64,000 nt of DNA. Source: a virus. Its lineage: Duplodnaviria; Heunggongvirae; Uroviricota; Caudoviricetes. Of this stretch, positions 29,587-51,321 are shown piece after piece. Below the pieces are notes generated by a model. The model searched no databases. It was not told the origin of the DNA and saw nothing but the letters and a program-made list of their open reading frames with translations. The translations under genes and the position numbers were made by a program. Location of the stretch: IMG/VR virus record IMGVR_UViG_3300031998_000033, positions 36,685-100,684 of that record; one strand, 5' to 3'. The stretch's first letter is position 1; each line of letters begins with the position of its first letter.

Positions 29587-29587
29587 A

Positions 29588-31502: not shown

Positions 31503-31540
31503 CTTCGCGTCTTAATTCTCTGTTCCGCCTTTGCATTGTC

Positions 31541-31571
31541 GAAATCCGCGTTTCGAAACGCGGATTTCGAC
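31541..31571. other. Perfect 13-bp inverted repeat (hairpin) between convergently arranged gene ends
   Basis: gaaatccgcgttt-cg-aaacgcggatttc. Confidence 0.5.
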
Positions 31572-31592
31572 TGCTGCAAACCGCGCGGCGCT

Positions 31593-32396
31593 TTACTTGT
31601 CGGCCTGAATCAGCAGGCTTGAAGGCTTGCCGTCGAACACAAGCGTAGTCGGCATGACGCCGTTCCATTTCTCGATGGCGTTCAGCATCATGACGTCCTT
31701 GTTCTTGTTGAGGGCCTCGGCCCTGATCTGGATCGCCTCGGCCTCGGCTTTCGCCGTCACGAGCTTCTGCTTGGCCTCCTCCTCGATCTCGGCGGTCTTG
31801 TTCTTGGCCTCTAGCGCTCTCTGCTGCGCCACCTGCTTCGACTCGATCGCCTTCTCGAACACGTCGCTGTAGTCGATGTTCATGATGTTGATCTGCTTGA
31901 CCGAAACCGGCTTGTCCGCGACAAGCCCTATGACCTTCTCCGAAATGGCGGCCGTCGCCTTCTCGCGGTTGTTCACCAGCTGCTCGGCCTCCCACTGCCC
32001 GACGACGTCCTTCACCGCCGACTGGACCGCCGGCTCTATGATGACCGACGCGTAGCGGTCGCCGTACTTCACATGCAGGTCCACGAGCTCGGCCTTCTTG
32101 ACGGCGTACGTCACCGCGATCTCGAAATCGGCCTGCTGCATGTCTTTCGTGTACGCCTGCATTTTGTAGTTGACGCGGACGTCGCGGAGCGTATAGCACT
32201 TCATCGACCCGCCGACGGGATTCACGAAGTACAGCCCGGGGTCGAGCACGGGTGTGTCGACCTTGCCGAACCAAGTCTTAAACCCGGCCTCATCGGCGTC
32301 GATCTGCCCACATCCAGACATTAAAACGACCATAACCGCGCTTAAAACAGCAAATACAATATTCTTCATACGACTTTCCTTTCTATAGTTGTTCAT
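31593..32396 (-). CDS. SPFH/band-7 (prohibitin/stomatin-like) lipoprotein
   Basis: Signal peptide plus lipobox LMSGC. SPFH core with a coiled-coil E/A/K-rich C-terminus. 267 aa, no TAG. Confidence 0.6.
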   Translation of the reverse strand: MNNYRKESRMKNIVFAVLSAVMVVLMSGCGQIDADEAGFKTWFGKVDTPVLDPGLYFVNPVGGSMKCYTLRDVRVNYKMQAYTKDMQQADFEIAVTYAVKKAELVDLHVKYGDRYASVIIEPAVQSAVKDVVGQWEAEQLVNNREKATAAISEKVIGLVADKPVSVKQINIMNIDYSDVFEKAIESKQVAQQRALEAKNKTAEIEEEAKQKLVTAKAEAEAIQIRAEALNKNKDVMMLNAIEKWNGVMPTTLVFDGKPSSLLIQADK

Positions 32397-32413
32397 AATA
32401 TGATTTTACCATG

Positions 32414-32442
32414 TTAAAAAACGGCAGAGAATCCTCTGCCGT
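32414..32442 (-). terminator. Rho-independent terminator
   Basis: cggcagag-aatcc-tctgccg followed by T6 on the minus strand after the TGA at 32480. Confidence 0.55.
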
Positions 32443-32479
32443 CAAAAAGCCGCCGTCTTAGAACCTATATGCGGAATTT

Positions 32480-33166
32480 TCAGAACGAAAAAGCCAAACA
32501 CGCGCAAATGGCATGGCCGGGACTCCAGTCGTGTTCTTTTGCGGATTTTACCTCGATCAAACGATAGAACAATTCGGCCGAACAGTTCTCCATCAAACTG
32601 AAAGCGGCGCCGAAATCCGTCCAAAACTGGCAGAACTTATCGTTTTTCCTTATATATCGGTCTTTCGAGCCTTCGTCAAAATACCATTCATAAGCCATGA
32701 ACAGCTTTATGTCTTTGACGGCGCCGGCTTCGCACAATACGGGAGTATACGCCTTCGTAAGGTTTCTATACCGGAAATACGGCCTTTCGCCTTCTAAATC
32801 CCGTATAACGAATCTCGACCTGTTCAGAACCTTGAACCCGCAGAACACGTCATGCACGAGAATATTAGCGCCCGGCCTGTTATCGCGCCTATACCTCGTG
32901 TCGGAACCGTTCCGCAGCAATACTATATCGTCCTGAACGCCGACAGACATCCATCTAAGCAGCGCATAGTCGACGAATACCGTCGTATGGAACTCGTCGA
33001 TCTTTTTCGCCGTCTGGGACTGATCGACGCCTACTCTAGCTTCTTCTGAAAAACCGACATTAAACTGGTCAACTTTCTTCGAAGCCTGCACCGTATTCCA
33101 TGACTCTATACTGTTCGCAGACGCGCAATATGCCGTAGCCAAAATAATGTATAAAAAACGTTTCAT
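32480..33166 (-). CDS. Secreted or outer-membrane hypothetical protein
   Basis: Signal peptide MKRFLYIILATAYCASA. 228 aa, no TAG. Confidence 0.45.
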   Translation of the reverse strand: MKRFLYIILATAYCASANSIESWNTVQASKKVDQFNVGFSEEARVGVDQSQTAKKIDEFHTTVFVDYALLRWMSVGVQDDIVLLRNGSDTRYRRDNRPGANILVHDVFCGFKVLNRSRFVIRDLEGERPYFRYRNLTKAYTPVLCEAGAVKDIKLFMAYEWYFDEGSKDRYIRKNDKFCQFWTDFGAAFSLMENCSAELFYRLIEVKSAKEHDWSPGHAICACLAFSF

Positions 33167-33196
33167 AGCTTAAAATTCTCCGACATACGGCTATAA

Positions 33197-33859
33197 TTAT
33201 CTGGCGTTCCGAATGCGTTTCCGGCCTGAAACGACGCTTAAACCCTGGCCCTGATACCCGGTCGGAAAAATCCTCGGAACCCTGTCGAGGCCTGTATCGG
33301 GAAAATCATATTCATATCCGTTCAAAAACAACATGCTAGTCAACATCGGAACTCTGATAAAAAGCGTAGCGGCTAATTCATCGCGGATTTCGGCATCCGG
33401 CATTCCATGTGTCGACTTAGACACGCGGGCAAGCGTATTTTCTCTGAATTCCTCATATTCTTCGAATCCCATAGCCAGCTGATCTATGGAAATCTTGAAC
33501 TTCAATGCCTTTGTCATATCCGGAAGAAACTCTATCGGAACGGTAGAATATACAACAGCGATCAGCTTCTCTCTGCAGAGGCGGCTCTGACCCTTCATCA
33601 TTTCCGGCGCCATTTCGGTAAACCTGCGCGTCTTGACGTCATCCGGCGCCGGATACATCGATATCGATGTAAGTATCCTACGACAGAACTCCTCTTTATC
33701 AGAATCGGCAAGGCGCTGAAAAACTGAATTGAAAACCTGGCCGTCTTTCGCAGAAGGTCCTATTTTAGCAAGCCATTCAAACCTCTGAAGCCTGTTCGCA
33801 TCAGATCCCGCCGATACAAGCGCGGTTAAAATTAAAACGACAGCATATAACATCTTCAT
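33197..33859 (-). CDS. Secreted hypothetical protein
   Basis: Signal peptide MKMLYAVVLILTALVSAG. 220 aa. Confidence 0.45.
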   Translation of the reverse strand: MKMLYAVVLILTALVSAGSDANRLQRFEWLAKIGPSAKDGQVFNSVFQRLADSDKEEFCRRILTSISMYPAPDDVKTRRFTEMAPEMMKGQSRLCREKLIAVVYSTVPIEFLPDMTKALKFKISIDQLAMGFEEYEEFRENTLARVSKSTHGMPDAEIRDELAATLFIRVPMLTSMLFLNGYEYDFPDTGLDRVPRIFPTGYQGQGLSVVSGRKRIRNAR

Positions 33860-34018
33860 GACTAATTTTTATCCTTTCTTTAACATATTTATTTCAAAAC
33901 CTGATCTATATACGGTGAGAACCGCCATGGTGACACGGCATTTGGCGATCTTCTTTATCGTATCCTCTTTTCGTTTTTAAAACATCCGCAGTTAGGCGAA
34001 CGCGCGGGCCTGAATTTA

Positions 34019-34441
34019 TCATCGTCCATTAACGGCCTTTCTCACCATTCTGTTCCACCACCTCACAGCGGCCTTCCTCGTCTTGAACACGGCGCCGTCG
34101 CCGCCGATCCGCGGCACGGAACCCAGTCCCCACCATTCGAAACCTTCGGTCGCTATCAGGCATTCCCTGCTGTGGGGAATGTCGCCGGTCTTCCTGAGCG
34201 CGCCCTTACGGCCGTAATCGCGCGTGTGCTCGATAACATACCAAAGACCTGACCACGGCGCCTTTTCATATTCAGGATCGTAGTCGTGGCAATTTCCTTC
34301 ATCGTCCTCCACCCTGATGTGGGGCACAGCTCCGCAAAACGGACACGGGTCGAAGCCGTCGGGGTTGCCGTAGTTCGGCCTGCGCTTTCTGTCCTTCGTC
34401 TGGAAATCAAGGCACAGCTGGTTTAAGTCTTTTTCCATCAT
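34019..34441 (-). CDS. Zinc-finger protein (Lar-like CPFCG motif), 140 aa
   Basis: CPFCGAVPH...H..C Zn motif. Function speculative. Confidence 0.35.
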   Translation of the reverse strand: MMEKDLNQLCLDFQTKDRKRRPNYGNPDGFDPCPFCGAVPHIRVEDDEGNCHDYDPEYEKAPWSGLWYVIEHTRDYGRKGALRKTGDIPHSRECLIATEGFEWWGLGSVPRIGGDGAVFKTRKAAVRWWNRMVRKAVNGR

Positions 34442-35016
34442 CTTGCTTTCTCTTTGATCTGAAACCCAAGCTTTGCCGCTAAGTCTTCCGGCGACTTAGG
34501 ATCAAGCTCTTCATACAGCTTTGCTATAGAGTAATTTGCTCTACGCTTTCTGTCATATACTGCCGGATCAAACGCCATCTCCGCTCTTCCAGGCCCATTT
34601 TCGCAGAAGTCTTTCAGCAGAGACTTGGCAGCAAGCTCATGAGAAAGGTCTCCATCTGCCCAAGACCCGCCTAATGAGTATCCTGATGACCAAGGATAAT
34701 AACAGTCATCCCAACTCAGACTGGCATACCATGTGCCGTCTTTCCGCTTGCCGTGATTTAGCGTGACAAAGCCGTCATACAAATGAAGCTTTGCATATAG
34801 AGTCTTCATCACCATCAGCCAGCTACCTTTGCGAAGCTTTTTCTTCTGCGCTGCGCAACCATGTTCAAGCGCATTTGCCGCACTGACAGAGTCTTCGCAT
34901 ACGTTCACTAGGTTAAGCAGCGGCTCCAACCGGCTTTCAAACTTGACTAGCATCTCTAGCTGGCCTTTGTCTATGCGCTCTAATGCGTCGGCAATGTTTT
35001 TCATATATGCAGTCAT
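34438..35016 (-). CDS. Hypothetical protein, 192 aa; paralogue of the N-terminal half of the 35371 gene
   Basis: Shares ...DGTWY..SLSWDDC... and RA(E/K)M..DPAV..R.R(K/R)ANYS.A(K/R)LYEELDPKSPEDLAAKLG with 35371..36714. Confidence 0.45.
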   Translation of the reverse strand: MTAYMKNIADALERIDKGQLEMLVKFESRLEPLLNLVNVCEDSVSAANALEHGCAAQKKKLRKGSWLMVMKTLYAKLHLYDGFVTLNHGKRKDGTWYASLSWDDCYYPWSSGYSLGGSWADGDLSHELAAKSLLKDFCENGPGRAEMAFDPAVYDRKRRANYSIAKLYEELDPKSPEDLAAKLGFQIKEKAR

Positions 35017-35064
35017 ATCGTCTCCTCACGCTTCCGCGCATGCCTTAGTCCTCCGGCTAACGCT

Positions 35065-35352
35065 TCAGCATCCGCCAACAGCCCGCCTCGGAGCCTTTTC
35101 TGGCACTTCATCCAGCAAGTCACAAACTTGCTTCTCTAGCTCGGCGTTCTTCGCTTCGAGCTTCCGAAGCCGTTTTACTGCTTCGTTAACAGCGGCCAGC
35201 TCTCCCGGAACTTCATCTTCATGGAGCTCTGACTTGTCAAGATGAAGCCATTCAAGCGCTTCGCAGAGTTCTTCAGTAGTGAGATCCTCAGGTTCGACAA
35301 TAGCTATCTTGCCGTCTCTCATAGCTTCCACTTTTGCTTTGCCGTCACTCAT
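35065..35352 (-). CDS. Hypothetical acidic coiled-coil protein, 95 aa
   Basis: Track ORF. Confidence 0.35.
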   Translation of the reverse strand: MSDGKAKVEAMRDGKIAIVEPEDLTTEELCEALEWLHLDKSELHEDEVPGELAAVNEAVKRLRKLEAKNAELEKQVCDLLDEVPEKAPRRAVGGC

Positions 35353-35370
35353 GCCTCAGCCTCCATCCAT

Positions 35371-36714
35371 TTACATACCCGGGTTTCCGTCCGCGCCGCA
35401 ATAGCACCCCGGAGTGCAGCCGCACATCATTCCCAGGCCGGGCATCATCTTCAGCCTGCGCCTGAGCTCGGCATCGTGCGCAGCCGAGCCGGTGGTCCGC
35501 TCGATCATCTTCTGCACGATGCCGTCGATGGTCGTCGGGTTCTCTTTCTTCCATTCTTCCATGCGCTTCCGCATCTCCCTCTTGAAAGACTGGCGGGCGT
35601 CTTCGGTCCTGATCCTGGCCTCTTCGTGGTCGTCCGCGCCGAGTACCCGCACGGCCTTCGCGACGCCGATTCCGGCGTTAAAGTGCGGAAAATCGTCTCC
35701 GATCCCATGCCCGAGGCCGATGATGGAGTTGACTACGCGGTCAAAAAGCCTGTCATCATCATATTCGTACGTCACCTGGTCGAGGACGACGAACTTGTCC
35801 ACTGACGCCGAGAAGATCTCCTCGAAGTGGTCAAGGCAATGCTTGACGATTTCCGGGTTGGTGTAGACATGTTCATAGCTGAAGTGCCTGGTGTTTTTGG
35901 ACTCTTCGTCGCCCTTTTTCGGCTTATACATGCACGGAGTCTCGCCGAGGACGCACCCTGGGACGCCGAGTTTCTCTTCGAGCTCCCGGAGCTTGGCCGC
36001 GTCCTCCTCGCTCGGCCCCTTGCCGTAGCGCTTCCAGGCCTCGGCCTCGGTATGCGGGTTTATGAGCACGACCTTCGCTTTGGCCTTCTTCACGATCTTT
36101 CTCAGCTCGCCCACCGCGTGGGAATCGAAATGCCCGCGCTCCTTGTCGTAGGAGATGGGGTAGTCGCCGAGCGCGTTTTTGGGATCGACGAATATGACGT
36201 TGACATTCGGGAGCTCGCCGGGCTTCACTTCGGTCCCGACTTTCGCCTTCTCGGTTTCCCCCTCGGCCTTCGCCTTCTTCTCCCTGACGGCATATCCCAG
36301 CTTGGCGGCCAGGTCTTCGGGGGACTTCGGATCGAGCTCCTCGTACAGCCTGGCCACGGAGTAGTTGGCCTTGCGCTGTCTTTCCCCCACGGCCGGATCG
36401 AGGTGCATCTTCGCCCTTCCGGGGCCTTCATAGCAGAAGTCCTCCACCGTCGACTTGGCCGCGAGCGCGCGGTCGGTCGTCTTACGGGCGAAAGACGCCT
36501 CCGCCAGCGTGTAGTAGGCCCACGGCGCCTTGGGGCAGTCGTTCCACCTGATACCGACGTACCACGTGCCGTCGCGGCGTGCGCCGCGTCTTATCGTGAC
36601 GTAACGGTCGTACGAGCGCAGCTTTTCGTACAGGGCGTTCGCGATTGTCGTCCAGCCGGCGGCGCGGAGCTTGGGCTTCCCGGCGGTTTCTGTCTTGGTT
36701 TTATCATGCTTCAT
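35371..36714 (-). CDS. Hypothetical two-domain protein, 447 aa
   Basis: N-terminal domain paralogous to 34438..35016. C-terminal domain with a GxG-rich Cys tail. No TAG. Confidence 0.5.
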   Translation of the reverse strand: MKHDKTKTETAGKPKLRAAGWTTIANALYEKLRSYDRYVTIRRGARRDGTWYVGIRWNDCPKAPWAYYTLAEASFARKTTDRALAAKSTVEDFCYEGPGRAKMHLDPAVGERQRKANYSVARLYEELDPKSPEDLAAKLGYAVREKKAKAEGETEKAKVGTEVKPGELPNVNVIFVDPKNALGDYPISYDKERGHFDSHAVGELRKIVKKAKAKVVLINPHTEAEAWKRYGKGPSEEDAAKLRELEEKLGVPGCVLGETPCMYKPKKGDEESKNTRHFSYEHVYTNPEIVKHCLDHFEEIFSASVDKFVVLDQVTYEYDDDRLFDRVVNSIIGLGHGIGDDFPHFNAGIGVAKAVRVLGADDHEEARIRTEDARQSFKREMRKRMEEWKKENPTTIDGIVQKMIERTTGSAAHDAELRRRLKMMPGLGMMCGCTPGCYCGADGNPGM

Positions 36715-36715
36715 G

Positions 36716-36820
36716 TCTCAGCCTCCAGTCGATGCAGCGCTTCAGGTACTCGACGTACTCGCTGTCACGGCACATGCCTTTACCTTCGACGTCCGATATA
36801 ATCTTTTTCATAATTAGATT
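36716..36820 (-). pseudogene. 34-codon ORF duplicating the C-terminal tail of the pncB-like gene
   Basis: MKKIISDVEGKGMCRDSEYVEYLKRCIDWRLRHEA versus PncB-like C-terminus SKGMCRDNDYVDYLKRTIDWRLKYE. TGA overlaps the ATG of the 35371 gene. Confidence 0.4.
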
Positions 36821-36855
36821 ATATCACGTAATTAATAGTTTGTATATTTTTATTT

Positions 36856-37728
36856 TTACTTTAATCTTCCACGTATAAAAGTAGAATTTGGACAGTTTTT
36901 AGCATATACTTCTATATTTCCATCTGTCCACCAATGACTACCTTTTATCGTGTTAGCTTGTTTTCTATGCCACTCAGCAAATCTTTTAGGATCATTTTTC
37001 TTAATATTCAAAATGCCTTCTTTTGATTTGCTTGCATTCAATTTTAATTTCAAACACACTTCATTAGAAAATGGTAATCGTCCTTTAATGAATCCGGTCG
37101 GACAATCAAATTGAAAAACTTCTACTGTACCATTATTCCACCAATGCTTTCCAATGCTGGCTTTACCAATATTTTTCTTATGCTCCTCGGATAACTTCAT
37201 CCCCATATGCGATTTACGTATTTTATCTCGCCATTGTTTTCCCTTTATGGGATCATTAGCAATTTTTCTAATTGTTTCTTTAGCTTTAGAATTTGCTTTC
37301 TATCTCGCACGTTTCTATACAATAGCTTCTTTAGACATAAAGTCTTCTGCGTTTTTGCCATACATTGGATTATTACATCCAGACATATCAGCTGAATGCG
37401 TTTTAGAAAATTCCTGTTTTATTTTTTCGTATGTTCTAGCAGTTATTTGTATGTCTTTGCAAATTGCGAATTTCCAAACTGCTGCAACAGCCGCGTTATA
37501 ACGTCTATCATTGTTTCCATATTCGCTTTGATACCATTTTGCCAAAAGCCTATGCGCAATGAAATGTTCACGCGCAGTCAATGCAACAATGTTATTTGGA
37601 TCATGTTCAAGCTCTGGATAAAGTGATCTCATCTTAATATGATGATATTCACAATAACAAATTGAACGATCAATCTTGTTAGTTAGTCTTTTCTAAATAA
37701 GACTATTATATATCTTCTTGTAGTTCAT
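36856..37728 (-). CDS. HNH homing endonuclease with NUMOD3-like DNA-binding repeats, about 290 aa, 3 in-frame TAGs
   Basis: HNH core CYCEYHHIK...PELEHDPNNIVALTAREHFIAH. C-terminal HWWNNGTVEVF...CPTGFIKGRL and HWWTDGNIEVY...CPNSTFIRGRL. Track ORFs 37315..37632 and 36856..37206 are one frame joined by two TAGs. The extension to ATG ~37726 crosses a third. Confidence 0.6.
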
Positions 37729-37845
37729 GTTTAGTTTCCTTTATTTAAGTGACATTGACGTGTCACATTTATTGTTTACTCTTCTTAAATACAAAAATAG
37801 CGCTAGCCGTCAAACTAGCGCTTGTAGCATGAACTACAAATTTAT

Positions 37846-39069
37846 TTACTCGTACTTCAATCTCCAATCAATTGTACGTTTCAAATAATCAACATAGTCA
37901 TTATCTCTACACATACCTTTTGAAGGTGTATTTGAAAGTTTTGCGACTGGCTTTCCATTGCACTCAACCATCTTGAATACAATGTTAAGTGGATCTACTG
38001 GCAGATCGCAAGTCAAAAATGTGCCAATTCCAAATGCCACATTCGTCCTGTCCTTGAAGTGCTTCCTTATAGCAGTCGCCTTTTCAAAGTTCAGCGAATC
38101 CGAAAACAAGAGAGTCTTGGTCTTAGAATCAATGCCAAGCTTCTTGTAGTAGTCAAGCATCAGCTCACCCCACCAGATAGGGTCACCAGAATCATGACGG
38201 ACTCCGCTGAACAACGTAGCGAAGTTCTTGTCGAAATCCTTCAAGAAGACTTCAGTTCCAATCGTGTCAGTAAGAGCGATGCCCAAGTCGGTCTTGTAAA
38301 CCTCATTCCAGACTTTCATGATCTCGGCATTAGTGTAGGACTTCTCAAGGCCCGGCTTCTGCTGCACACCCATATAAAGCTCATGTGCCTGCGTACCAAT
38401 TGGCTTTGTGCCATATTTATGCGCCAGCCAAACATTCGAAGTCCCGACAAAGCCTGGAATATTCTCATTGACGAGATACTTGATAAGCCACTCCTGCATC
38501 TTCTTCGAGTAGCGACGGCGGGTGCCGAACTCCGAAAAGACCCCAATATCGTAAACACCGTCCTTGACTTTGCTGAATTTCTCGATAGTCCTCTTCTGAA
38601 ACTCGATATCGAGCTCATCAAGCCTGTCTGCATACTTCATCCTGAACCAGACTTCCGAGACGATCGCAAGAATAGCTATCTCGTAGAGTGACGTATCAAG
38701 CCAAGTACCTTCGGCCTCGATTGCAAGGCCGCAATCATTATAGGTCTGCATTCCTATCTCATTGATATGGATGTCTTCGCGGTTAGGATGCCAATTCTTG
38801 AGATTATTGACGATGTATGCAGGCGGTAGCCATCTAAAATCGATTTTTAATCCAGTAATCTCTTCTTTAGAGAAAGTAAGCTTGCAGAACCAGTCAATCT
38901 GGTCCTTTATTTCTTTTACCATTTCTGGCGTAAAACGCACATCGGAATTACGTACCTTCAAGGCCCAGCGCGCGGTGTAATCACCGTAATACCGGTCAAT
39001 GACCGCGCCCATATTAGGCTTATAGGCATCTATATCTGTTAAATTAGTTATAATTGGTGGAAGTATCAT
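37846..39069 (-). CDS. pncB: Nicotinate phosphoribosyltransferase (PncB)
   Basis: TDAYK, FSEFGTRRR, VGTSNV...IGTQAHE, GIALTDTIG, GVRHDSGDP, FGIGT.LTCD and VECNGKPVAKLS all co-linear with E. coli PncB. 407 aa, no TAG. Confidence 0.8.
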   Translation of the reverse strand: MILPPIITNLTDIDAYKPNMGAVIDRYYGDYTARWALKVRNSDVRFTPEMVKEIKDQIDWFCKLTFSKEEITGLKIDFRWLPPAYIVNNLKNWHPNREDIHINEIGMQTYNDCGLAIEAEGTWLDTSLYEIAILAIVSEVWFRMKYADRLDELDIEFQKRTIEKFSKVKDGVYDIGVFSEFGTRRRYSKKMQEWLIKYLVNENIPGFVGTSNVWLAHKYGTKPIGTQAHELYMGVQQKPGLEKSYTNAEIMKVWNEVYKTDLGIALTDTIGTEVFLKDFDKNFATLFSGVRHDSGDPIWWGELMLDYYKKLGIDSKTKTLLFSDSLNFEKATAIRKHFKDRTNVAFGIGTFLTCDLPVDPLNIVFKMVECNGKPVAKLSNTPSKGMCRDNDYVDYLKRTIDWRLKYE

Positions 39070-39698
39070 TACAGCAATTCTCCGTTAAGGTATTTCTTTT
39101 CTCTGTCTTCTATCAATGTTATGATTTTACCTGGGATTTCCTCGTCCATCGGGAAAAGCGAACACGTCGGCGGATGGTCATGCCCGTCCATCGCTATAAC
39201 CAGATAGCAGTCGTCGGACGCATCCGACGTAAAATTGAATTTTTTCTTCCACTTGTCCGGCGTATAAGGCTGGCCGATGACTTTGACCGGAACGAATTTT
39301 CTGCACATATACGCCCAGGCGTAGTCTCCGACGTCGAATTTTATCGCGTCGGGCGGCGTCCCAGCATAGGTTCCGTCCCGCCAGTCTGAAGAAAACGGAG
39401 AATACGCCAACGGCTTGCCGTCTTTCGTATAGGACCATTCCTGCTCGTATATAGGCGACCAGACATCGTTTTCGAACAGCATGCGGTTGACTCGGACTTC
39501 CCTGACGAAAAACCCGAGAAGCCGCGGCCCCCAGTCGCATTCGCAGAAATCCGCGACGCATTTGGCAATCGCCTTCTCCGCGTTCTTCTTGGTGCTGTAG
39601 ACGCCGAAGTCTTTTTTGTCTACCGCCCGCGCAAAGCCGCGGCAATGCCTGCCCGATTCATTCGTCAGCCTTGTCGCAATATATACTTTTCCAGCCAT
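39069..39698 (-). CDS. Hypothetical protein, 209 aa
   Basis: Track ORF, no TAG. Confidence 0.4.
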   Translation of the reverse strand: MAGKVYIATRLTNESGRHCRGFARAVDKKDFGVYSTKKNAEKAIAKCVADFCECDWGPRLLGFFVREVRVNRMLFENDVWSPIYEQEWSYTKDGKPLAYSPFSSDWRDGTYAGTPPDAIKFDVGDYAWAYMCRKFVPVKVIGQPYTPDKWKKKFNFTSDASDDCYLVIAMDGHDHPPTCSLFPMDEEIPGKIITLIEDREKKYLNGELL

Positions 39699-39883: not shown

Positions 39884-40508
39884 TGTGAAGAAGACATACA
39901 CGAAGAAGCAGATCCAGGAAGCCATCGCCTACTGGAAGAAGCAGCTCGCGAAGGGCAACTACAGGAAAGTCAACGAGGCGTTTGAGTATTCTGGCGAAAA
40001 TCCTTACGACATCGACAACTGCAAGGCTTCTGGCTGGGTAATGTATTTCAGGAAAAACGGCGAAGCATACTTGCCGGTTGACTATACTGTCAGTCATAGG
40101 CTGCATCCGGAAGACGATCCCAGCCCGCACGCGGCGGATATTCGCGCGACCGACGAGCAGATGAATCGCGTACGTCTCGCGCAGGCTAACGCTAGCACTG
40201 TCGCCAGCCGGTCGTGCAGGTTCGTTCTGGACGGGCGCAGAGTGTCAGCTACGTTTTTTGCGACGCGTGACGCCGCGCAAAGGGCGGCGGACGCTTCCGA
40301 AATGGACGGCGGCGGAGCCCAGTCCTGCGCGTACATCTGGGACTGCGTCAACCTCGGCTATGTATCTGAAAACGATGTCGGCGATCTCGAAAAGACCGAC
40401 GTCGAGATTATAGACACCTATATTTGCGGAAATGGCGCTGTCATTTTCGGACAAGATGCGCTTGAGGACAACGCGGACGAATGGGAACGCGACACGCGTC
40501 GCCTATGA
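39884..40508 (+). CDS. Leader-family protein 4 (VKKTYTKKQIQEAIAYWKKQLAKGNYRKVNE...), about 207 aa
   Basis: GTG start at ~39884 after an aggaga RBS; the track ORF begins further upstream. TGA at 40506. Confidence 0.5.
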
Positions 40509-40746
40509 TGGAATCTGAATTTGGAGCAGATACTTCGCATAGCGAGAAGATTATACCGGCGATTGTCGCATGGCTTTGCATAAACGACAGAAACGCACTA
40601 ATAGCCGCCCTTGACGGCATCGGAGTAAGCTTAAACGACCGTTAGCGAATCGCTTTGTACCATACCGCCATGCGGCAAATAAAGTGCAATCAGAAGAAAT
40701 TGCCGTACATAACGCTGAACATGGACGGCCTTTAGCCAAATTAAAG
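40507..40746 (+). CDS. Small hypothetical protein of about 79 aa, 2 in-frame TAGs
   Basis: ATG overlaps the upstream TGA (TGATG). Translated by hand to TAA. Confidence 0.3.
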
Positions 40747-40815
40747 AAGCAAAGAAGAGATACAGACGCTGCTGGGCAACCATTAAGTTTAGCGTAAGGC
40801 ACCATAAATGACGAA

Positions 40816-40846
40816 AGGCGCGGAAATTTCCGCGCCTTTTTATTTC
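40816..40846 (+). terminator. Rho-independent (bidirectional) terminator between convergent genes
   Basis: aggcgcgg-aaattt-ccgcgcct followed by TTTTATTTC. Confidence 0.6.
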
Positions 40847-40877
40847 TACTATTTCCGGCTGTTACAGTCGGTCGTCT

Positions 40878-41413
40878 GACATATTGAAGATGTTTAATTA
40901 AATCTATGCTGTTGAATCAGTTATAAAATAGAAATCCTTGCCACGCTGTTCTAGCCTGTAGACGCAATAGAAACTACCGTTTACGTCGGCGACAACCGCC
41001 ATGTCATAATCATCGTCAAATGCTTCAAAGGCTTCTTGCCAAATTTCATAATAGTTCTATCCGGTATATCCGGCAGTAACTGGCTTTGCGATTAAAGATA
41101 GCAACAATCCCTCATCATCATTCGGATGCGGAATCCTTTGAACCCCATCTATTGTAAGTATTTGATTTCCAAACTATACAAAACATTCTGGATCTAACGG
41201 TCTGTTATTGTTATCAATTTTTACATAATCATCTGGATTGCAGTCGTAAATATCACCAACCCCGAGGCTTTCATCATTATTTTTCTGTACGAGAATTGTT
41301 GTTTCATCATTTTTAAGGTTCTCGTTCACCTTTCGGTAGTTGCCCTTCGCGAGCTGCTTCTTCCAGTAGGCTATCGCCTCGACGATTTGCTTTTTGGTGT
41401 ATGTCTTCTTCAC
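40878..41413 (-). CDS. Leader-family protein 5 (MKKTYTKKQIVEAIAYWKKQLAKGNYRKVNE...), about 178 aa, 3 in-frame TAGs
   Basis: Track ORF 41174..41413 continues in frame through TAG 41174 and two more TAGs to TAA ~40878. Confidence 0.45.
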
Positions 41414-41526
41414 AAATGTTTTCCTTTACTTTATAGGTTTAATTTTATTTACCTAAACCTCTAAAAATAACCTATCGTAGAGCGCTCCTATCTCTTCCTG
41501 TTTCTCCATATTTATAAATTATGCTT

Positions 41527-41558
41527 CTAAAAAGAAAAGGCCCGGAAAACCGGGCCTT
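41527..41558 (-). terminator. Rho-independent terminator
   Basis: aggcccgg-aaaa-ccgggcct with a T-rich run on the minus strand. Confidence 0.55.
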
Positions 41559-41640
41559 TGGCCGAATGCTTTAACATAATGCTGTAACAGTTAAAGCATA
41601 ATTTGTTTACCTCCGGGGATCAGGCGGATCAGAACGTATC

Positions 41641-42111
41641 TCAATTATAGTCATCCGCCGAACCGTCGTCGTACTGATAGTTGTCGAAGTAGAACTCCAC
41701 TCCGAATTCGCCTTCCCCGTTTTTCACGCTCGCAACCACAGTGTCGTAATTAAGTTCGGCGTCGCACGAGTCTTCTAAAGCCCAAAGCACCTTTTCTTCG
41801 AAATCCTCGACAGACAGGGTAGTCTTGGCTGTTACGGAAATCCCATGCGACGTATCGGAAACATTGACGTCCGAAATTCCATCGACGCTTTCGATTTCGT
41901 TTTTGATCGCTTCTAGCCCAACTAACTCTATTTCGTATCCGGCGTCGTCTTCGTATCCGGCGTCGTCTTCGTATCCGGCGTCGTCTTCGTATCCGGCGTC
42001 GTCCAAATCATTCATATCTTCGTTTACCTTGCGGTAATTGCCCTTGGCGAGCTGTTTCTTCCAGTAGGCGATGGCTTCCTAGATCTGCTTCCTGGTGTAG
42101 GTCTTCTTCAT
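41641..42111 (-). CDS. Leader-family protein 6 (MKKTYTRKQI(TAG)EAIAYWKKQLAKGNYRKVNE...) with (DDAGYE)x4 repeat, about 156 aa
   Basis: The TAG sits at the leader position that is Q, V, T or A in the other members. TGA at 41641. Confidence 0.5.
41935..42010 (-). repeat. 18-nt perfect tandem repeat x4 (gtatccggcgtcgtcttc) encoding DDAGYE
   Basis: Read directly from the sequence. Confidence 0.8.
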
Positions 42112-42180
42112 AACGGTATTCCTTTAAAGATATTTACCTTATAAAAATTATTTACCTTGAACAGGCCAGGATTTCTACCG

Positions 42181-45277: not shown

Positions 45278-45706
45278 TTAGCCTAAACCGAAACTGGCTT
45301 CAGCCGCGGGCTCAGGCCCGGCGTCTAATTCAGACTCCTCGTCGCCGGCTTCGTCGCCGCCTCCGAGATCGCCTTCATTGCCGCCTTCATCGCCGCCTTC
45401 GCCTTCACCCTCGCCGCCTTCTCCGCCTTCGGCTCCACCGGCTTGTTTCGGTGACGCAGCGGCCGATGCGGCTTTCTCCTCAGCCTCAACATCCTTTTTG
45501 AGACGGATCGGCGACTTAAAGTCAACAGGCGGATTCTCCTCAGAGACCAGGTCGGCGAAATAATCAGCTATGGCCACCAGCTGCTTTTCGCGGATAAGCT
45601 CGCGGAAGTTATCTTCAATGTCCTTATCCGACATGCCGAGATACTTACGCATGACCGTTATCTTAGAGATCTCATCCTAGTCGGCGAACGCCTTGTATAT
45701 CGTCAT
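45278..45706 (-). CDS. Acidic Gly/Glu-rich small protein (possible prohead core / internal head protein), about 142 aa, 1 in-frame TAG
   Basis: ATG ~45704. Low-complexity GGAEGGEGGEGEGEGGDEGG tail. Immediately downstream of the portal gene. Confidence 0.4.
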
Positions 45707-45769
45707 CTTGGCGTCGACAAGCTTCTGAATCTCGTACAGGTCATACAGCACGGGCTTGACGAACTCGAT

Positions 45770-47122
45770 CTATATGTCGGAGTCAATGAGGTCATATCCG
45801 TCCTTGTCCCAGATGTCGCGCAGCTTGAGATGCGTTATGAAGCTCTTCTTGAAGCCGTCGGCGAACCTCCGCTGGAAACGCATGATCATACGGGAGAACG
45901 CGTACTCCTCATACGAAATAGCGTCGTTCTTCTCCATGGTATTCTCCGGAGTCTTGTAGCGCGTCCACGGTACCTTGAACTGCTTGATCAGCTGCCTGAG
46001 GAAATACTCGATGTCGTCCATCTGGTCGTATGTGGCGGAAGACCCTACCGACTCCACCGATGTGCCGTCGTTGCCGTCCGACTTGCCGAACACATAGCTC
46101 TTCAGCATCGTCGGCGGACTGTACGTGCCGTAGATGTCCCGGCCGTTAGGCGCCGCGACCTTCTTCGACTTGAGCTCCATCGCGAACCTGCGTACATACT
46201 CGTCTGCGTAGTTCTAGGTCATCTTGCCGGTCGAGACGTTGAACAGCAGCCTCTCCGGGGCATGCGTCACGCGGAGGATCACCGCCGAGTCTTCGAGCAG
46301 CGCGAGCCTGTGGTACTGCTGCTTCGCGTTCTCGATAAGCGGGTATGAAATCATATAGTCATTCGAATATTCTCCCGAATTGATATATGTCACCTGATTC
46401 CACAAAAGCGGAACGCACGTGTCTTTCGCAAGGTGGAAGTTATACGTAGTCGGCGCGATCGTATTGAATACGGCCGCGCAGCCGGCTATAGAATTGAGGT
46501 ACATCTGACGGCACTCTTCGGCGAACTGCTCTACGTCGAATACAATGCCGATCGGCAGGCCTGTCTCGGCGTTTATCAGGGTATCGTAATATTCGGCGGG
46601 CAGGAATTTCACTCCGATGATGCCGAGGTCCGGATACTGGGGGTTGATAATGTTCTCCCACGCGAGCTCGCCCTCCGTCAGGAACCGCTTGATGAGGTTG
46701 AACCCGTCGTCGCGCATGTTGAACAAATTCATGAATTTTTTGAATTCGTTCTGAAGGATCTCCTGCTGCACTGAATTAAGCCGCTATGGAAGCGCCAGAG
46801 TTATGAAATTCTTGTTCTCGTCGTCATGGATGAAGTCATCCGCGATTTCATCCATGCACCAGCGGCATATCGGATACTGCGCGATCTGCCGGTACATCTG
46901 TATGCGCTGCGCCTTGTCGGACGCGACAGGCATGGCCAGCACGTCCCCGAAGTCGATCGCGCATGTCGGATTTGCATACCTGGCGATACGCTCCTGCGCT
47001 GCCCTCGAGACCATCGACCTCGAGTTTATTATAGTAGCTATGTCGTTATTGATACGGCTGAACGCTCCGTAATTCGAATTGTTCATCACGCCAGCGGCGG
47101 CCTGCGTAGTATTGATTCCCAT
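45770..47122 (-). CDS. Portal protein (T4 gp20-like), about 450 aa, 2 in-frame TAGs
   Basis: Track ORFs 46784..47122, 46214..46771 and 45770..46180 are one frame joined by TAG 46784 and TAG 46214. HRLALLEDSAVILRVTHAPERLLFNVSTGKMT resembles gp20 [30 protein letters not shown]. Confidence 0.7.
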
Positions 47123-47134: not shown

Positions 47135-47875
47135 TTATTTCTTTCTGCGCTTCGAGCGCCCGTCTTCGTCTTCTTCCTTATTGTCCTCGTCCTCGTCTTC
47201 GTCTTCGGAATCTTCATCTTCTGGTATCGTGAACTGAACGTCTGAAAACGCGCCGGATTTCGCGAGGCTCTTAACGACGTCGTCCGTATTGAAAGTATAC
47301 CCGCCTTCCTGCTGCGCGTCTACGGCACCGTCCTTCATCTTCTCGCGCAGAAGCTCCATGTTATGCCTATGCTTCAGCTCGGCCAGCTCTATCCGCTGCT
47401 GCTGCTGGAAAACCATCAGCTTAACCTTCTCTACAAACTTGGACTTCGCCTTGTATATGGAGATGAACTCCGCGACGTTCAGATGTATGCTTTCGAGAAA
47501 AGCCGCGGCCGCATGGACGAGTTCGGGGTCCAGGAGGTCGGAGGACGTTATGTTGCCCACGACATGCTGGAACACCTGCTGCGCCGACACGACCATCTTC
47601 TCGATCTCACGAAGCGACGCCGTCATGTCGCCAAGGGCCAGCTGCCCGCCGACCTCGCTGCGCTGAAGTTCCTCAGCCTTTCTGTCTATCAGTGCGGCCT
47701 CGGCGTTTATACGCTCATCCATACCGTCGAACGCCTTGTGGAACTCTTCGGTCTCGACGTTAAGGCTTTCGAGCATCTCGTCGAGGGACTTCCCGCCCGA
47801 GATGCCGAGCGCCTGGTCTATGCGCTCCTTGGTCGTCAGCCTGCGGTCGGAGTCCTGCATGTCAATCGGCGTCAT
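47135..47875 (-). CDS. Acidic coiled-coil protein (scaffold-like?), 246 aa
   Basis: Track ORF with a DEDSEDEDEDEDNKEEDED tail and no TAG. Confidence 0.4.
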   Translation of the reverse strand: MTPIDMQDSDRRLTTKERIDQALGISGGKSLDEMLESLNVETEEFHKAFDGMDERINAEAALIDRKAEELQRSEVGGQLALGDMTASLREIEKMVVSAQQVFQHVVGNITSSDLLDPELVHAAAAFLESIHLNVAEFISIYKAKSKFVEKVKLMVFQQQQRIELAELKHRHNMELLREKMKDGAVDAQQEGGYTFNTDDVVKSLAKSGAFSDVQFTIPEDEDSEDEDEDEDNKEEDEDGRSKRRKK

Positions 47876-48446
47876 CTTCGATATACTGCTTGATGCTGCG
47901 GCTGAGACTCGTCGCGCAACTCATTCCGGGGAAAGATTCCATTTCCGACAGAAGCTTCTGCATCAGGTCTTTCTTAATGTTGATCTGCTTATAGTATTTC
48001 TTCAGGCAGGTCAAATACGAGTTAAATATAGACGTCGAACACCAGCTGAACGGATTCGTGAAATTGAAATCGTAGTTCTTCAAACCGCGGATTAATTTAT
48101 ACCATGCGAAGCCCTGCAGATCTTCCTTCAGCTCGCGCGGATAATTGCGGAACTCGCTTCGGTTCAGTATCTTGGCCGTAAGGGCCATGAACATGCGGCC
48201 AAGTTCTTCTGATATTATGCGGTCTTCGACGTTCTTCGCCGAATCGCGCCATTTTATAAGCTCGGCGAGAAGCTCCTTGTTCGTGCAGTAGAACCTGTCT
48301 TTATTGGCAGGATCGCCCCGCTTCGCCTTTTCGGCCTGTTTGACCTTCTAGGCCCTAAGTTTGATCTGTTTCTTTTGTTCGTACGAAAGCCTGCTGGCCT
48401 CGCTCTGCTTACGCGGCCGCTTTGCTGTAATTTCTTTTGTCGGCAT
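47862..48446 (-). CDS. Late-transcription sigma factor (T4 gp55-like), about 194 aa, 1 in-frame TAG
   Basis: RFYCTNKELLAELIKWRDSAKN..VEDRIISEELGRMFMALTAKILNRSEF...NYDFNFTNPFSWCSTSIFNSYLTCLKKYYKQ parallels gp55 [39 protein letters not shown]...[29 protein letters not shown]. ATG ~48444. Confidence 0.6.
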
Positions 48447-48592: not shown

Positions 48593-49810
48593 ATGATTAA
48601 CCTCGACGATATATTCCGTACGGCGGACGACGCGATAAACGAATCCAAAAAAACCGACGTATGCGAACTCGACCGCGTATGCACGACGTTCGCAGACGTC
48701 CGCGACGCCATGCGCCGGGCGGCCAAAGACGCCATCCAGATAACGCCGCTCGAAAACTGCGTAAAGGCGTACGTCACGCAGAAAGACGGAGACTTCGTCG
48801 TATCGCCGGATGTCCCGGGCAAAACCCAGTTTAAGCCGATGCAGCAGGCGAAGGCGTCCGACTGGAAAGTATCAAAACAACAGAAACCGATGCTCGACAA
48901 ATCGCTGAAAGACATTCATGATACGCTCCGCGGCATGAGCGACGACATGTCTTCGACATGGGGCAACGGAAGGAGCTGCGTGGAATGCGTTCTCGCGGCG
49001 CCGCCTGAGGGGCATGAAAAAGAATACGGCGGCAAATTCCTGGCCGTGTTCCCGGAAATCCTGCAGTTCGACGCGGGCGGAAACAGGATAGAAGGCCGGC
49101 CCGAAGGCGCCGAAGACCTCCTGGCGCAGATGAAAGAATGCCCATGCTGCGCCCAGACGAGCAAGACATGCATAGACGCGCTCAAGCATGCGCAGAAATG
49201 CAAGGAAAAGCTGGAGTCGCTCGAGAAGCGCCTTGAGAAAATGACTGACGGCCTCGGATGGCGCTGCTCGCTGGACCAATATGTCGACGACAAGTATTCA
49301 AGATATATAGTGAACGCGGCGATGCGGCACGGCATAGACGTGTCGCGAGACTCGCAGTTTGTTAAAAGCCTCGTGCGCAGGCTGGCTGAAATCGCGGTCA
49401 GGGGAAAGCCTACGCGGTCCGATCTCGCCACGTACGCGAAAGGCGACAAGGTGGACTTCAAATCGGACGCGTGCAGGCAGTTCATCGCGGACGTCGAACA
49501 GAACGCGGAGGAAACAAACGGCGAAGTGCTCGGCCCGATCCGCGATTTTACGACATGCCTCGCCAAGGCCGCGGCGAACATGGCGCTGGCGATAGCGCAG
49601 CTAGACGGCACCGACGACGTCAAAGACCTGGAGAAATGCCGGATACTGTCCGAAGAAGACGCTGCTCCCGGCCGCAAAACGCTTGAAAATGTCGTCAAAT
49701 ACTGCGAACGGGGACCGAAGACTAAAATCGTCGGGTGCAACGGCAGGCTGTATCTCATGCAGGCCGACTTCAGCGGAATAAACGCGATAACGCAGCTGTT
49801 CGGAATATAA
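48593..49810 (+). CDS. Hypothetical protein, 405 aa, no TAG
   Basis: aaggaga RBS; TAA stop overlapping the next ATG. Confidence 0.5.
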   Translation: MINLDDIFRTADDAINESKKTDVCELDRVCTTFADVRDAMRRAAKDAIQITPLENCVKAYVTQKDGDFVVSPDVPGKTQFKPMQQAKASDWKVSKQQKPMLDKSLKDIHDTLRGMSDDMSSTWGNGRSCVECVLAAPPEGHEKEYGGKFLAVFPEILQFDAGGNRIEGRPEGAEDLLAQMKECPCCAQTSKTCIDALKHAQKCKEKLESLEKRLEKMTDGLGWRCSLDQYVDDKYSRYIVNAAMRHGIDVSRDSQFVKSLVRRLAEIAVRGKPTRSDLATYAKGDKVDFKSDACRQFIADVEQNAEETNGEVLGPIRDFTTCLAKAAANMALAIAQLDGTDDVKDLEKCRILSEEDAAPGRKTLENVVKYCERGPKTKIVGCNGRLYLMQADFSGINAITQLFGI

Positions 49811-51321
49811 TGTCGAAAGACCGTGCCATGACCGTTTTCGCAGACATGCTATTCGAAAGCAGAAAAGAATACCTGTCGAAATACGCGGACCAACCGGGCG
49901 TAAAAGACGTCCTAGATAGGTTCTGGTCGCTTCGGCATAGGATTTCCGCGCCGAAAAACGACATAGACTGGTGGATAAAGAAGCCCTATGGCGAGCTCAA
50001 GGCGTTCGTCGACGGCTTTGACGCGCGTAACAGACAGGCAAAGCGCCGTGACGAGCATATTGCGAGAGCCGAAAAGTACGGCGCGAAAAAGCTGGGCGAA
50101 ACCGGCATGTACGAGGTCTGGTACATACCGTCGCATGAGGCCGCGCAGGAAATAGGGCGCATGTACAAGGGCAAGTCGGCCAGCTGGTGCATATCGACTG
50201 AGAGCTCGCAGTACTTCGACTACAACTACAAAGACTCCGAATTCGTGTTCATGGTGCTGCGCGACGGCGCGGAGGCCGAACTGGACGGATGCGACAAGAT
50301 CGCGCTGCAGACGTCGCTCGACGAAGACGGCGCGGTCGAGCTCGACGCCGTATGGGACATCCGCGACAGCCGGATAGACGACGGCGACGAGTACGACGGC
50401 ACGCCGTTCTCGGAGACTGAAACCTACAAAGAAGTCTACGAGGCGCTCGGGATGTTCGAACAGAGCCGCCTGAACAGGACCGTATACCGCGAAAAGCAGC
50501 TCGAAAGGATAATGCGGGACCCGGAGCAGATCAAAAACGTAGTGTTCAAAGACGCCGCGGCGAAGCCCGGCGAAGACGGGTCGTGGACGAACGACTACGG
50601 CCTGGACGACGTCTGCGACCTGATCGACGGGGAAAGCCGCGACGCCGTCAGCGAGAAGTTCATCCGCAGAATACTGGACCCGGAAGGCGACTTATACGAC
50701 ATATTCTATTCCCCGGACGAGCCGTCGTTCGAGTACATGCGCAAGGCCGAAAAGGCGTTCGAGGACGCCGTCGGCAGGTTCGGAGTGAAATGGGACGCGA
50801 TCGAGAAGGCATACGAAGGCGACGAAATAGAAGGCCTAGCCGAGGACGTCCAGGACTGGATGCGCGACCAAATACATGAAGATTTCTATGGAGGGAACGG
50901 GTACGGCGTCGTCTGGCGCGACTGCTGGGAAAACGGCACCGTCGAGGAAGCCCGTAAAGACATAGTCAGACAGATCAGCGACAAAATCGGCGCGACGGAG
51001 TACAACTGGCAGGACGGCGTCTTCGTAGTGCGGTTCAAGCCATCGCAGATACGCGACATGGCCAAGATGCGGCTTGCCGGAAACGACGAGAACGCGCTTC
51101 GGCTCTCGATGTACGAGAATACCGACGACGACGCGCCGGAAACGATATGCGTCTACGAACCGCAGTACGGCTGGGACGGGTTCGACGAAGACATGATGGC
51201 CGAGGCCGCCGCGTCGTTCGGCAAAAGGCTTGCCGGCAGGATTACAATGCAGAAAGACGCGCCGGGGCAGATGTTCTTCAGCTTCGACAGTCCGGACAAT
51301 CCCGACAACATGGAGGAATGA
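49810..51321 (+). CDS. Hypothetical protein with a 'YEVW.IPS..AA...GR.YKGKS..WCIST' domain, about 503 aa
   Basis: Probable start MSKDRAMTVF at 49810. Central domain paralogous to that of 20037..21046. Confidence 0.5.
   Translation: MSKDRAMTVFADMLFESRKEYLSKYADQPGVKDVLDRFWSLRHRISAPKNDIDWWIKKPYGELKAFVDGFDARNRQAKRRDEHIARAEKYGAKKLGETGMYEVWYIPSHEAAQEIGRMYKGKSASWCISTESSQYFDYNYKDSEFVFMVLRDGAEAELDGCDKIALQTSLDEDGAVELDAVWDIRDSRIDDGDEYDGTPFSETETYKEVYEALGMFEQSRLNRTVYREKQLERIMRDPEQIKNVVFKDAAAKPGEDGSWTNDYGLDDVCDLIDGESRDAVSEKFIRRILDPEGDLYDIFYSPDEPSFEYMRKAEKAFEDAVGRFGVKWDAIEKAYEGDEIEGLAEDVQDWMRDQIHEDFYGGNGYGVVWRDCWENGTVEEARKDIVRQISDKIGATEYNWQDGVFVVRFKPSQIRDMAKMRLAGNDENALRLSMYENTDDDAPETICVYEPQYGWDGFDEDMMAEAAASFGKRLAGRITMQKDAPGQMFFSFDSPDNPDNMEE

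Follow-up and report, generated by a model that had tools for sequence, protein, structure and literature searches.

In bacteriophage T4, the internal proteins IPI, IPII and IPIII begin with a short capsid-targeting sequence (CTS), which reads MKTYQEFIAE↓A in IPII and IPIII and MKTFKEF...ITE↓A in IPI (here and below, ↓ marks the bond behind the Glu that closes a motif). IPI* counteracts a host defence, GmrSD. An N-terminal motif is also common to the T4 core proteins gp22 (MLKEQLIAEA) and IPII/III (MKTYQEFIAEA). In phage P1, the Dar antirestriction proteins become head cargo via an N-terminal targeting region and are delivered with the DNA. To our knowledge, the principle of a CTS on hypervariable internal proteins has until now been known essentially from T-even phages. 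The prohead proteases T4 gp21, phiKZ gp175 and SPN3US gp245 all cleave C-terminal to Glu in x-X-E motifs, and gp21 degrades the T4 scaffold at many sites (PMC5694885). SPN3US gp53 and gp54 have an identical N-terminus and a diverged remainder, with several cleavage motifs per propeptide, and extra sites within a propeptide aid its clearance according to the SPN3US authors (PMC5694885). Here we describe a 64,000-nucleotide stretch of an uncultivated Caudoviricetes virus (the window; positions 36,685 to 100,684 of IMG/VR record IMGVR_UViG_3300031998_000033), in which six genes with otherwise unrelated products begin with one conserved leader of up to 31 residues.

The key new observation is a boundary motif, phi-(N/D)-E↓S/A/G (phi, hydrophobic residue), at the end of the leader in the family to which these genes belong. 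With a probability of roughly 60%, we read the leader as a T4-like capsid-targeting propeptide on hypervariable head cargo. The window corresponds to about 112.5-176.5 kb of an ENA metagenome contig of 277,570 bp and has a G+C content of 49.9%.

Six window genes with a common leader

All six genes named by an earlier, sequence-only reading of the window exist, and four of them needed small corrections to their ends. Gene A (21055-21834, minus strand) encodes 259 amino acids (aa) and contains five in-frame TAGs; its leader codons (21742-21834) end in ICE↓K. Gene B (20037-21038, minus; the start is at 21038, not 21046) encodes 333 aa and has a short diverged leader, MYTKRQIAEAISYWEGVLLSE↓D, at 20976-21038. 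The leader of gene C (25070-25381, minus; 103 aa) is also short, MKKYTKKCIKEAIDYWTKRLNE↓I at 25316-25381; 25381 replaces the earlier start at 25405, where an upstream ATG is a possible alternative. Gene D (39885-40508, plus; 207 aa) starts with GTG at 39885, the earlier coordinate 39884 being one base out of frame, and its leader codons (39885-39977) end in VNE↓A. Gene E, now bounded at 40898 (40898-41413, minus; 171 aa), also starts with GTG and has leader codons 41321-41413 ending in VNE↓N. In gene F (41641-42111, minus; 156 aa), the leader codons (42019-42111) end in VNE↓D and include a TAG, read as Gln, at codon 11, which confirms the remark that TAG falls inside one leader.

The full leader, (M/V)KKTYT(K/R)KQIxEAIAYWKKQLAKGNYRKVNE, had been ascribed to all six genes. 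Its 31 residues are indeed common to D, E and F; A matches up to about residue 27, and C and B retain only the core M(KK)YTK[KR][QC]IxEAIxYW. Residues M1, Y5, T6, I10, E12, A13, I14, Y16, W17 and L21 are invariant in all six, and each leader closes with [LIV]-x-E (LNE↓I in C and LSE↓D in B). A hidden Markov model of the leader matched the six-frame translation of the window exactly six times, in A-F, with no others.

Beyond the leader the six payload sequences are unrelated, in agreement with the complete divergence noted before, and their isoelectric points (pI) range from 4.1 to 6.3. The payload of D is 176 aa long with a pI of 4.4, contains Cys and has no in-frame TAG, and homologues P0080, P0068 and P0004 retain both leader and payload of this gene. 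The E payload is acidic (pI 4.1) and has three in-frame TAGs, and that of F contains four DDAGYE repeats and carries a net charge of -34. The flanking terminators that had been proposed correspond to a bidirectional terminator-like hairpin at 40813-40840, between the convergent genes D and E, and a minus-strand terminator-like hairpin at 41536-41559, 3' of F.

DNA similarity among the leader genes starts at the start codon, and conservation upstream of it is limited to a purine-rich ribosome-binding site and a short promoter-like motif. In pairwise comparisons of the D, E and F leaders, synonymous differences (pS, 0.58-0.92) are near saturation and replacements are rare (pN, 0.03-0.05). This pattern indicates that D, E and F are old paralogues under selection on the peptide, not recent conversion tracts or an RNA element.

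Many long open reading frames (ORFs) of the window are broken by TAG only and closed by TAA or TGA, and TAG is therefore a sense codon in this phage. In leaders of the window and related contigs, five of seven in-frame TAGs fall on two near-invariant Gln positions, and database protein P0136 is identical to gene A translated with TAG as Gln. The best reading of these data is a genome-wide TAG-to-Gln recoding, of a kind established in gut phages (PMC9523058, PMC10879173). A tRNA scan found no tRNA gene, suppressor tRNA included, in the 64-kb window.

Size and payload diversity of the leader family

The leader-gene observation is confirmed, and the family is much larger than the sequence-only reading knew. 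An exhaustive search of 1.84 billion cluster representatives with the leader profile returned 698 at E<=1e-3 and 205 at E<=1e-10. All are metagenomic, their lengths range from 31 to 396 aa, and the leader begins at residue 1 in about 82%. In a word-indexed search, the profile found 64 short metagenomic proteins, cut off at TAG by standard-code gene callers. BLAST clustering of the 99 payloads with 50 aa or more gave 75 unrelated groups. Leaders are basic, with a mean net charge of +5.6, and 89% of payloads are acidic; the peptide is conserved over phages of 34-50% G+C. Related contigs contain leader genes in clusters, with six in tandem in L009 and seven within 7 kb in L014 and L060, and a related contig of 432 kb has at least nine leader copies over five separate stretches.

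In Pfam and PHROG scans of the six proteins and 128 family representatives, no family covered the leader and almost none covered the payloads. Pfam matches among the 128 representatives were LRR_5 (BspA-type repeats) in two, PF25190 (Tad5, an inhibitor of type I Thoeris) in one, and a few marginal families. The Tad5 match is weak (E 5e-5, below the curated cut-off level) and, in 1 of 128 representatives, is the only hint of the injected anti-defence effectors that had been suggested. A PDB sequence search with A, B and D returned only noise, and AlphaFold2 models of D (predicted local distance difference test score, pLDDT, 42 from a four-sequence alignment) and of the B payload domain (pLDDT 49) were too poor for a fold search. 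A homologue search with the B payload domain gave three uninformative matches. No description of the leader family was found in the searchable literature.

A protease-type site at the leader end

When leaders from the window and its relatives were aligned on the invariant Trp (W17; n=182), 177 of them ended in a phi-x-E triplet whose Glu was fixed at position +6, +9 or +14 relative to W17. The linker between helix core and site varies in length and the site is retained, as expected of a processing site. Numbering from this Glu as P1, P3 is L/V/M/I in 98% of leaders and P2 is Asn in 71% and Asp in 12%; P1' is Ser in 63% and Ala or Gly in 20%, or S/A/G in 83%. Of the leader tails, 86% contain [LIVM][ND]E, versus 3.8% of payload windows of the same size. 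Family-wide similarity ceases directly after the boundary Glu.

The sequence-only reading had placed the cleavage at an invariant I-x-E↓A within the leader. I10, E12 and A13 are invariant as stated; the principal maturation cut, however, is most likely at the leader end, at VNE↓, ICE↓, LNE↓ or LSE↓ in the window genes, and I10-x-E12↓A13 may be an additional site.

The leader as a movable module

Four phages encode one and the same payload family directly before the scaffold gene, each with a different N-terminal extension, and the homology begins exactly after an x-x-Glu. The extension is a leader in L049 (...QLDE↓ARHDG), an internal leader fused to a leucine-rich repeat (LRR) protein in L016 (...KIDE↓GIHDG), an unrelated domain in L054 (...TISE↓ARYDG) and only MKNTCE↓ARHDG in L017. 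Payload identity is 43.6% between L049 and L017 (E 1e-68) and 51% between L049 and L016 (E 9e-51). In the window, the payload domain of B (YEVW...WCIST) has a leaderless paralogue at 49810-51318 (plus; 503 aa), with 36% identity over 160 aa (E 6e-33). The homologous region spans residues 18-174 of the B payload, and both proteins match phrog_28193. Taken together, the leaderless paralogue and the swapped extensions indicate a leader that moves between proteins as a module, and in these alignments the position behind the boundary Glu looks like a conserved mature N-terminus.

In some ORFs two or three leaders occur in series, and the modules are not separated by any stop codon (L009 2263-3100; P0065, P0066, P0067, P0100, P0112, P0114 and P0172), and the internal leader of the L009 ORF lacks Met and is preceded by L-N-E-S. 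Such ORFs possibly encode polyprotein cargo cut at internal leaders; equally, they show that a position other than the N-terminus is compatible with function of the element, or at least with its persistence. Upstream of A, a 694-aa ORF (21989-24073, minus) contains an internal degenerate leader-like segment, KTISESDRQIYYWAHMLDE↓A, at about 22751-22810, after NTKPRPFKMV. The stretch 21835-21990, read in the frame of A, is a decayed copy of residues ~378-420 of the 694-aa protein (...HDDAFLV.DG.KFV.P...NTKPRPFKMV...). The arrangement points to duplication or recombination where leaders join, and to a two-module 694-aa product with an internal leader.

Leader genes in the head-assembly modules of related phages

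L007 is a TAG-recoded IMG/VR contig retrieved via the leader pattern. T4 gp21, taken from the T4 record, matched one of its ORFs (E 1e-8; by BLAST, E 4e-11), and this ORF matched the PHROGs head maturation protease at E 4e-35. It has 614 homologues in all, and PF03420 (Peptidase_S77) was present in 120 of the 120 listed, which are the best 120 of the 614. The gene order in L007 is gp21-like protease, two leader genes, a 427-aa coiled-coil protein and a gp23-like major capsid protein (phrog_138, E 1e-72); the coiled-coil protein occupies the position of T4 gp22 and is a putative scaffold. In L049, the protease is followed by intervening ORFs and then by a leader gene immediately upstream of the scaffold and capsid genes, and L054 has three leader genes behind its protease ORF. 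L016, which comes from a contig of 277,027 bp, carries four leader copies no more than 8 kb from the protease, and scaffold and capsid genes lie downstream.

The boundary motif recurs in the products of these modules. Three putative scaffolds with a total of 1,096 aa contain 15 copies of [LIVMF][ND]E[SAG], where the background of about 0.9 per 1000 aa would give 1.0 (15-fold; Poisson P 4e-13), and all three open with a 19-residue stretch ending in L-N-E↓(S/A). Three of three clade capsid proteins have M-[L/I/V]-N-E-A at residues 53-57, near the point where T4 gp23 loses a propeptide of 65 residues. The clade protease itself begins with (M)KTKx[L/F]K[L/M]I[T/A]E[S/A] in 112 of the 120 listed homologues and has K-x-I-T-E-A in common with the leader, a likeness that is short and only suggestive.

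T4-type core, expression class and the protease question

The window encodes a T4 gp20-type portal (45278-47122, minus; Pfam Portal_T4 E 3.7e-68, phrog_213 E 6e-70, phmmer against T4 gp20 E 1e-24), which by its sequence marks the phage as a user of T4-type head assembly. A T4 gp55-like late sigma factor (47862-48446, minus; phrog_234 E 9.5e-19) and a tail tube protein (55304-55957, plus; phrog_45 E 1.8e-12) are also encoded.

In-frame TAGs occur at 8.9 per 1000 codons in the six leader genes, at 8.9 in twelve virion or packaging genes and at 3.1 in three replication genes; the block 26340-39698 (M50 peptidase, NMNAT-Nudix, SPFH, NAPRTase and small ORFs) has none in 3,806 codons. The heptamer GTAAATA is over-represented in the window, with 21 copies versus 9 +/- 3.3 expected, mostly 20-45 nt upstream of start codons in the late region, that of a tail-fibre-like gene included (for example 3412-, 25415-, 41452-, 42137-, 48482-, 48561+, 55967+ and 59451-, with strand). 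Its distance upstream of C, E and F is 23-45 nt, with minus-strand copies at 25409-25415 for C, at 41446-41452 (38 nt) for E, and two at 42131-42137 and 42149-42155 for F; D has the variant GAATAAATA about 23 nt upstream. GTAAATA resembles the T4 late promoter, TATAAATA, and could be the late promoter that the gp55-like sigma factor recognises. A and B are probably co-transcribed with the 694-aa gene. Together, TAG density and promoter motif are compatible with late expression of the leader genes, without proving it.

A 405-aa Cys-rich protein is encoded beside the late sigma factor gene (48593-49810, plus), with GTAAATA upstream. Its N-terminus, MINLDDIFRTADDAINE↓SKK, places I-N-E-S at residues 15-18, and it may be another processed head protein.

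The sequence-only reading had seen a ClpP-family enzyme as the only protease in view and none like gp21, and both points held. The ClpP homologue (16024-16674, minus) is real (Pfam CLP_protease E 1.2e-21, with PHROG matches of ClpP type), and a search of the window with T4 gp21 was empty. The neighbours of the ClpP gene are terminase and clamp-loader genes, and neither the portal gene nor a capsid gene adjoins it. In a survey of jumbo phages, the occurrence of ClpP was patchy and the authors took it to be host-directed (PMC7824862). The homologue is probably not the head-maturation enzyme for the leader family and probably irrelevant to it. The enzyme found in the head modules of related phages is a Peptidase_S77, and a gp21-type protease is present in the leader-bearing contigs L007, L016, L049 and L054. 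Among 224 jumbo phages, gp20-type portals and gp21-type proteases have identical phyletic patterns (PMC7824862). Because the window encodes a gp20-type portal, a Peptidase_S77 gene is expected in the remaining 213 kb of the contig.

What the leader may do

In the reading that we prefer, the leader would form a basic amphipathic helix, with I10, I14, W17 and L21 on its hydrophobic face, that docks the new protein on an assembling scaffold core of T4 type. Late in infection, a gp21-type (Peptidase_S77) protease encoded outside the window would cut after Glu at [L/V/M/I]-[N/D/x]-E↓S/A/G, and probably also at the invariant I-x-E↓A within the leader. The freed payload, hypervariable and usually acidic, would remain in the head and presumably be ejected with the DNA. 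Core docking, cleavage, presence in the virion, ejection and anti-defence roles of the payloads are what we infer from sequence. A capsid-targeting propeptide removed by a Glu-specific protease had been hypothesised from the letters of the window, and this idea is partly supported: by the boundary motif, by its presence in scaffold and capsid proteins of relatives and by head-module synteny in four contigs, and further by a payload found with and without a leader, a portal, tube and late sigma factor of T4 type, and a TAG density like that of virion genes. We put forward only tentatively, as something that we would not expect to hold in full, the broader proposal that a large clade of huge phages, uncultivated, TAG-recoded and with a T4-type core, uses the leader as its universal address tag for the capsid. 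About 700 families of head-packaged, host-injected effectors would then carry it, including polyproteins cut at internal leaders.

Several observations weigh against a capsid-targeting propeptide. P1' in the six window genes is A, N, D, K, I and D, not the Ser that is usual in the family, and these genes adjoin replication and NAD (nicotinamide adenine dinucleotide) genes besides structural genes. The gp21-type protease is absent from the 64-kb window, and among the 120 listed of the 614 homologues of the L007 protease none is on the phage's own contig. In five of nine protease loci of the clade (L017, L018, L020-L022) no leader gene lies within 10 kb of the protease; adjacency is thus recurrent, not universal, and we claim no statistical enrichment. 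The label of putative scaffold comes from position and composition, a PHROG scan having given no match. BLAST of the clade capsid protein against T4 gp23 does not put M-L-N-E↓A on the T4 site L-T-E↓A (Glu65), and with this ambiguous alignment the clade capsid cleavage site is assigned by position. Internal copies in longer ORFs mean that the element need not be N-terminal, and the payloads are acidic whereas T4 internal proteins are basic. Neither 9 kb of the window (nucleotide search) nor the consensus leader (tblastn) had a match in 50,697 phage records, so that there is no cultured or proteomically characterised relative; a degenerate leader pattern had no match in 185,579 reference prokaryote genomes, which leaves no prophage or host clue.

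The main alternative is a leader that is never cleaved, an amphipathic basic helix that tethers the payloads to one partner outside the capsid (such as DNA, RNA, a membrane, a host hub protein or a phage replication compartment), with the terminal N-E-S serving as helix cap and linker. Polar and hydrophobic leader positions are both strongly conserved, AlphaFold2 predicts a helix over residues 7-22 (with low confidence), the leader charge of about +5.6 contrasts with acidic payloads, and, besides the internal copies, many leader genes are far from head genes. We nevertheless hold such a tether to be improbable, for it leaves unexplained why the boundary motif is the same as that enriched in scaffolds and at the capsid propeptide position, why unrelated N-extensions of one payload all end in x-x-E before a conserved start, and why leader genes are repeatedly placed in the head module, with the protease upstream of them and the scaffold downstream. 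Alternatively, the proteins could be packaged and processed as structural or assembly components of the prohead core, analogous to T4 gp67 and gp68, and then be degraded and lost, not ejected as effectors. The members that lie between protease and scaffold or capsid genes fit such a role, as does the payload family that four phages retain directly before the scaffold gene. Payloads as diverse as these (75 unrelated clusters among 99, about 700 clusters overall), with many paralogues per genome in several clusters, are however atypical of stoichiometric assembly components and typical of conflict-driven cargo, and we judge this role clearly unlikely.

That the window encodes a ClpP homologue and that the tag is N-terminal and basic would also suit a degron, recognised by the phage ClpP with a host unfoldase for the timed destruction of early effectors. 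This is very unlikely, given that the patchily distributed ClpP of jumbo phages is unlinked to head genes (PMC7824862), that nothing connects the ClpP gene to leader genes at the loci examined, and that TAG density and promoter motif of the leader genes match late or virion genes, not early ones. Lowest of all we rate a nucleic-acid element, be it a translation-initiation or regulatory cassette or a handle for gene conversion and recombination, with a functionless peptide. Repeated 5' ends could favour the shuffling of cassettes, and the in-frame gene fusions at leaders and the decayed duplicate of the 694-aa-gene junction upstream of A point the same way. It is largely refuted by near-saturated synonymous sites beside conserved amino acids, by upstream conservation limited to the ribosome-binding site and the promoter-like motif, and by a peptide conserved across phages of such different G+C content. 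We accordingly rejected gene conversion and an RNA or regulatory element as the cause of the alike 5' ends.

If the leader is a capsid-targeting propeptide, one short motif flags hundreds of candidate injected proteins in uncultured huge phages, and injected proteins are the phage factors likeliest to act first against host defences. The principle known from T4 would extend to a distant lineage with a reassigned code, and its protease would have a narrower predicted specificity, hydrophobic-Asn/Asp-Glu↓Ser/Ala/Gly. The multi-leader ORFs suggest that cargo may be delivered as polyproteins processed at internal leaders. Were the leader such a tag, injected anti-defence and take-over proteins could be read from metagenomes, and the tag could be reused for loading foreign cargo. 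Even if packaging is disproved, a family of about 700 clusters, built on a module of 20-30 residues under strong selection and outside Pfam and PHROGs, merits description.

Other genes of the window

From ORF translations, we read a putative family-B DNA polymerase, clamp loader and FEN/RNase H in the window. The large terminase gene, a putative identity from Walker A/B motifs seen by eye, looks fractured into three pieces within 9390-14745 on the plus strand (9390-9773, 10909-11634 and 13024-14745). The break points resemble split-intein junctions (...GKC / ...SHNT; ...ANC / ...SHNC), with a weak Intein_splicing match, and the pieces are separated by free-standing ORFs at 9815-10912 (DUF559/MTES_1575 endonuclease fold) and 11639-13027 (DUF7487). 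In the clade, DUF7487 ORFs repeatedly adjoin head genes (L016 2666-4141; L017 8631-10001, 17448-18506 and 19412-20732) and also lie inside the fractured terminase gene (window 11639-13027), and they behave like a mobile gene family of the homing-endonuclease kind.

Two genes belong to NAD salvage: a nicotinate phosphoribosyltransferase (NAPRTase_N + NAPRTase; 37846-39069, minus) and a cytidylyltransferase-like/NUDIX fusion that resembles an NMN adenylyltransferase-Nudix protein (29588-30787, minus). These enzymes may oppose NAD-depleting defences. Membrane-protein genes unusual for a phage encode an MFS transporter (5922-7190, minus), an M50 site-2-type metallopeptidase (26340-27011, minus) and an SPFH/Band-7 lipoprotein (31593-32396, minus). 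Two low-complexity proteins (25448-26284 and 56004-57155, both plus) have no family match; one has a Cys-rich domain and terminates in a proline-rich (PPGPPV)n tail, and the other contains a long acidic repeat rich in Asp, Ser and Thr (SDDTGDD...).

Comparison with known systems

Polymorphic toxins and conotoxin precursors have the same architecture of conserved leader and diversifying payload; their biology and trafficking are unrelated, and they serve as an analogy only. The P1 Dar proteins are alike in concept, but have no sequence relationship to the leader family, and P1 packages a handful of proteins as cargo instead of a hypervariable family under one leader. The inner-body and ejection proteins of phiKZ, SPN3US and 201phi2-1, which gp175/gp245-type proteases process, are also similar: in these giant phages, many paralogous head proteins lose an N-terminal propeptide through cleavage after the Glu of an x-X-E motif. 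Their propeptides, however, are mostly longer than 100 residues with S/A/G at P3, where the leader family has L/V/M/I. Their paralogues are homologous over the full length (e.g., pfam12699), whereas the leader family has only the leader in common, and Pfam scans of the six proteins and 128 representatives found no pfam12699-type domain.

The T4 internal proteins differ from the leader family in several respects. The leader is 20-31 residues long and has a second, stronger site at its end (phi-N-E↓S), and it is strongly basic in front of mostly acidic payloads, whereas the T4 internal proteins are basic. Unlike the T4 CTS, it also occurs internally in multi-module ORFs, and the family is far larger, with about 700 clusters, and known from sequence alone, only in uncultivated TAG-recoded huge phages. 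The likeness to the CTS that had been pointed out from the letters is seen at the opening residues (MKTYQEFIAE↓A in T4, MKKTYTKKQIxE↓A in the window). It comprises only M-K-(K)-T-Y and I-x-E-A, with two indels over 11-13 residues, which is too short for statistics and does not establish homology. In its organisation, the family resembles the CTS-bearing proteins IPI, IPII, IPIII and Alt of T4. In both, one short N-terminal leader precedes otherwise unrelated, fast-diversifying proteins and closes, at the level of sequence, with a hydrophobic-x-Glu site of the gp21 prohead protease type. In both, other core proteins have related N-termini, and the leader genes go together with a gp20-type portal and late transcription of the gp55 type.

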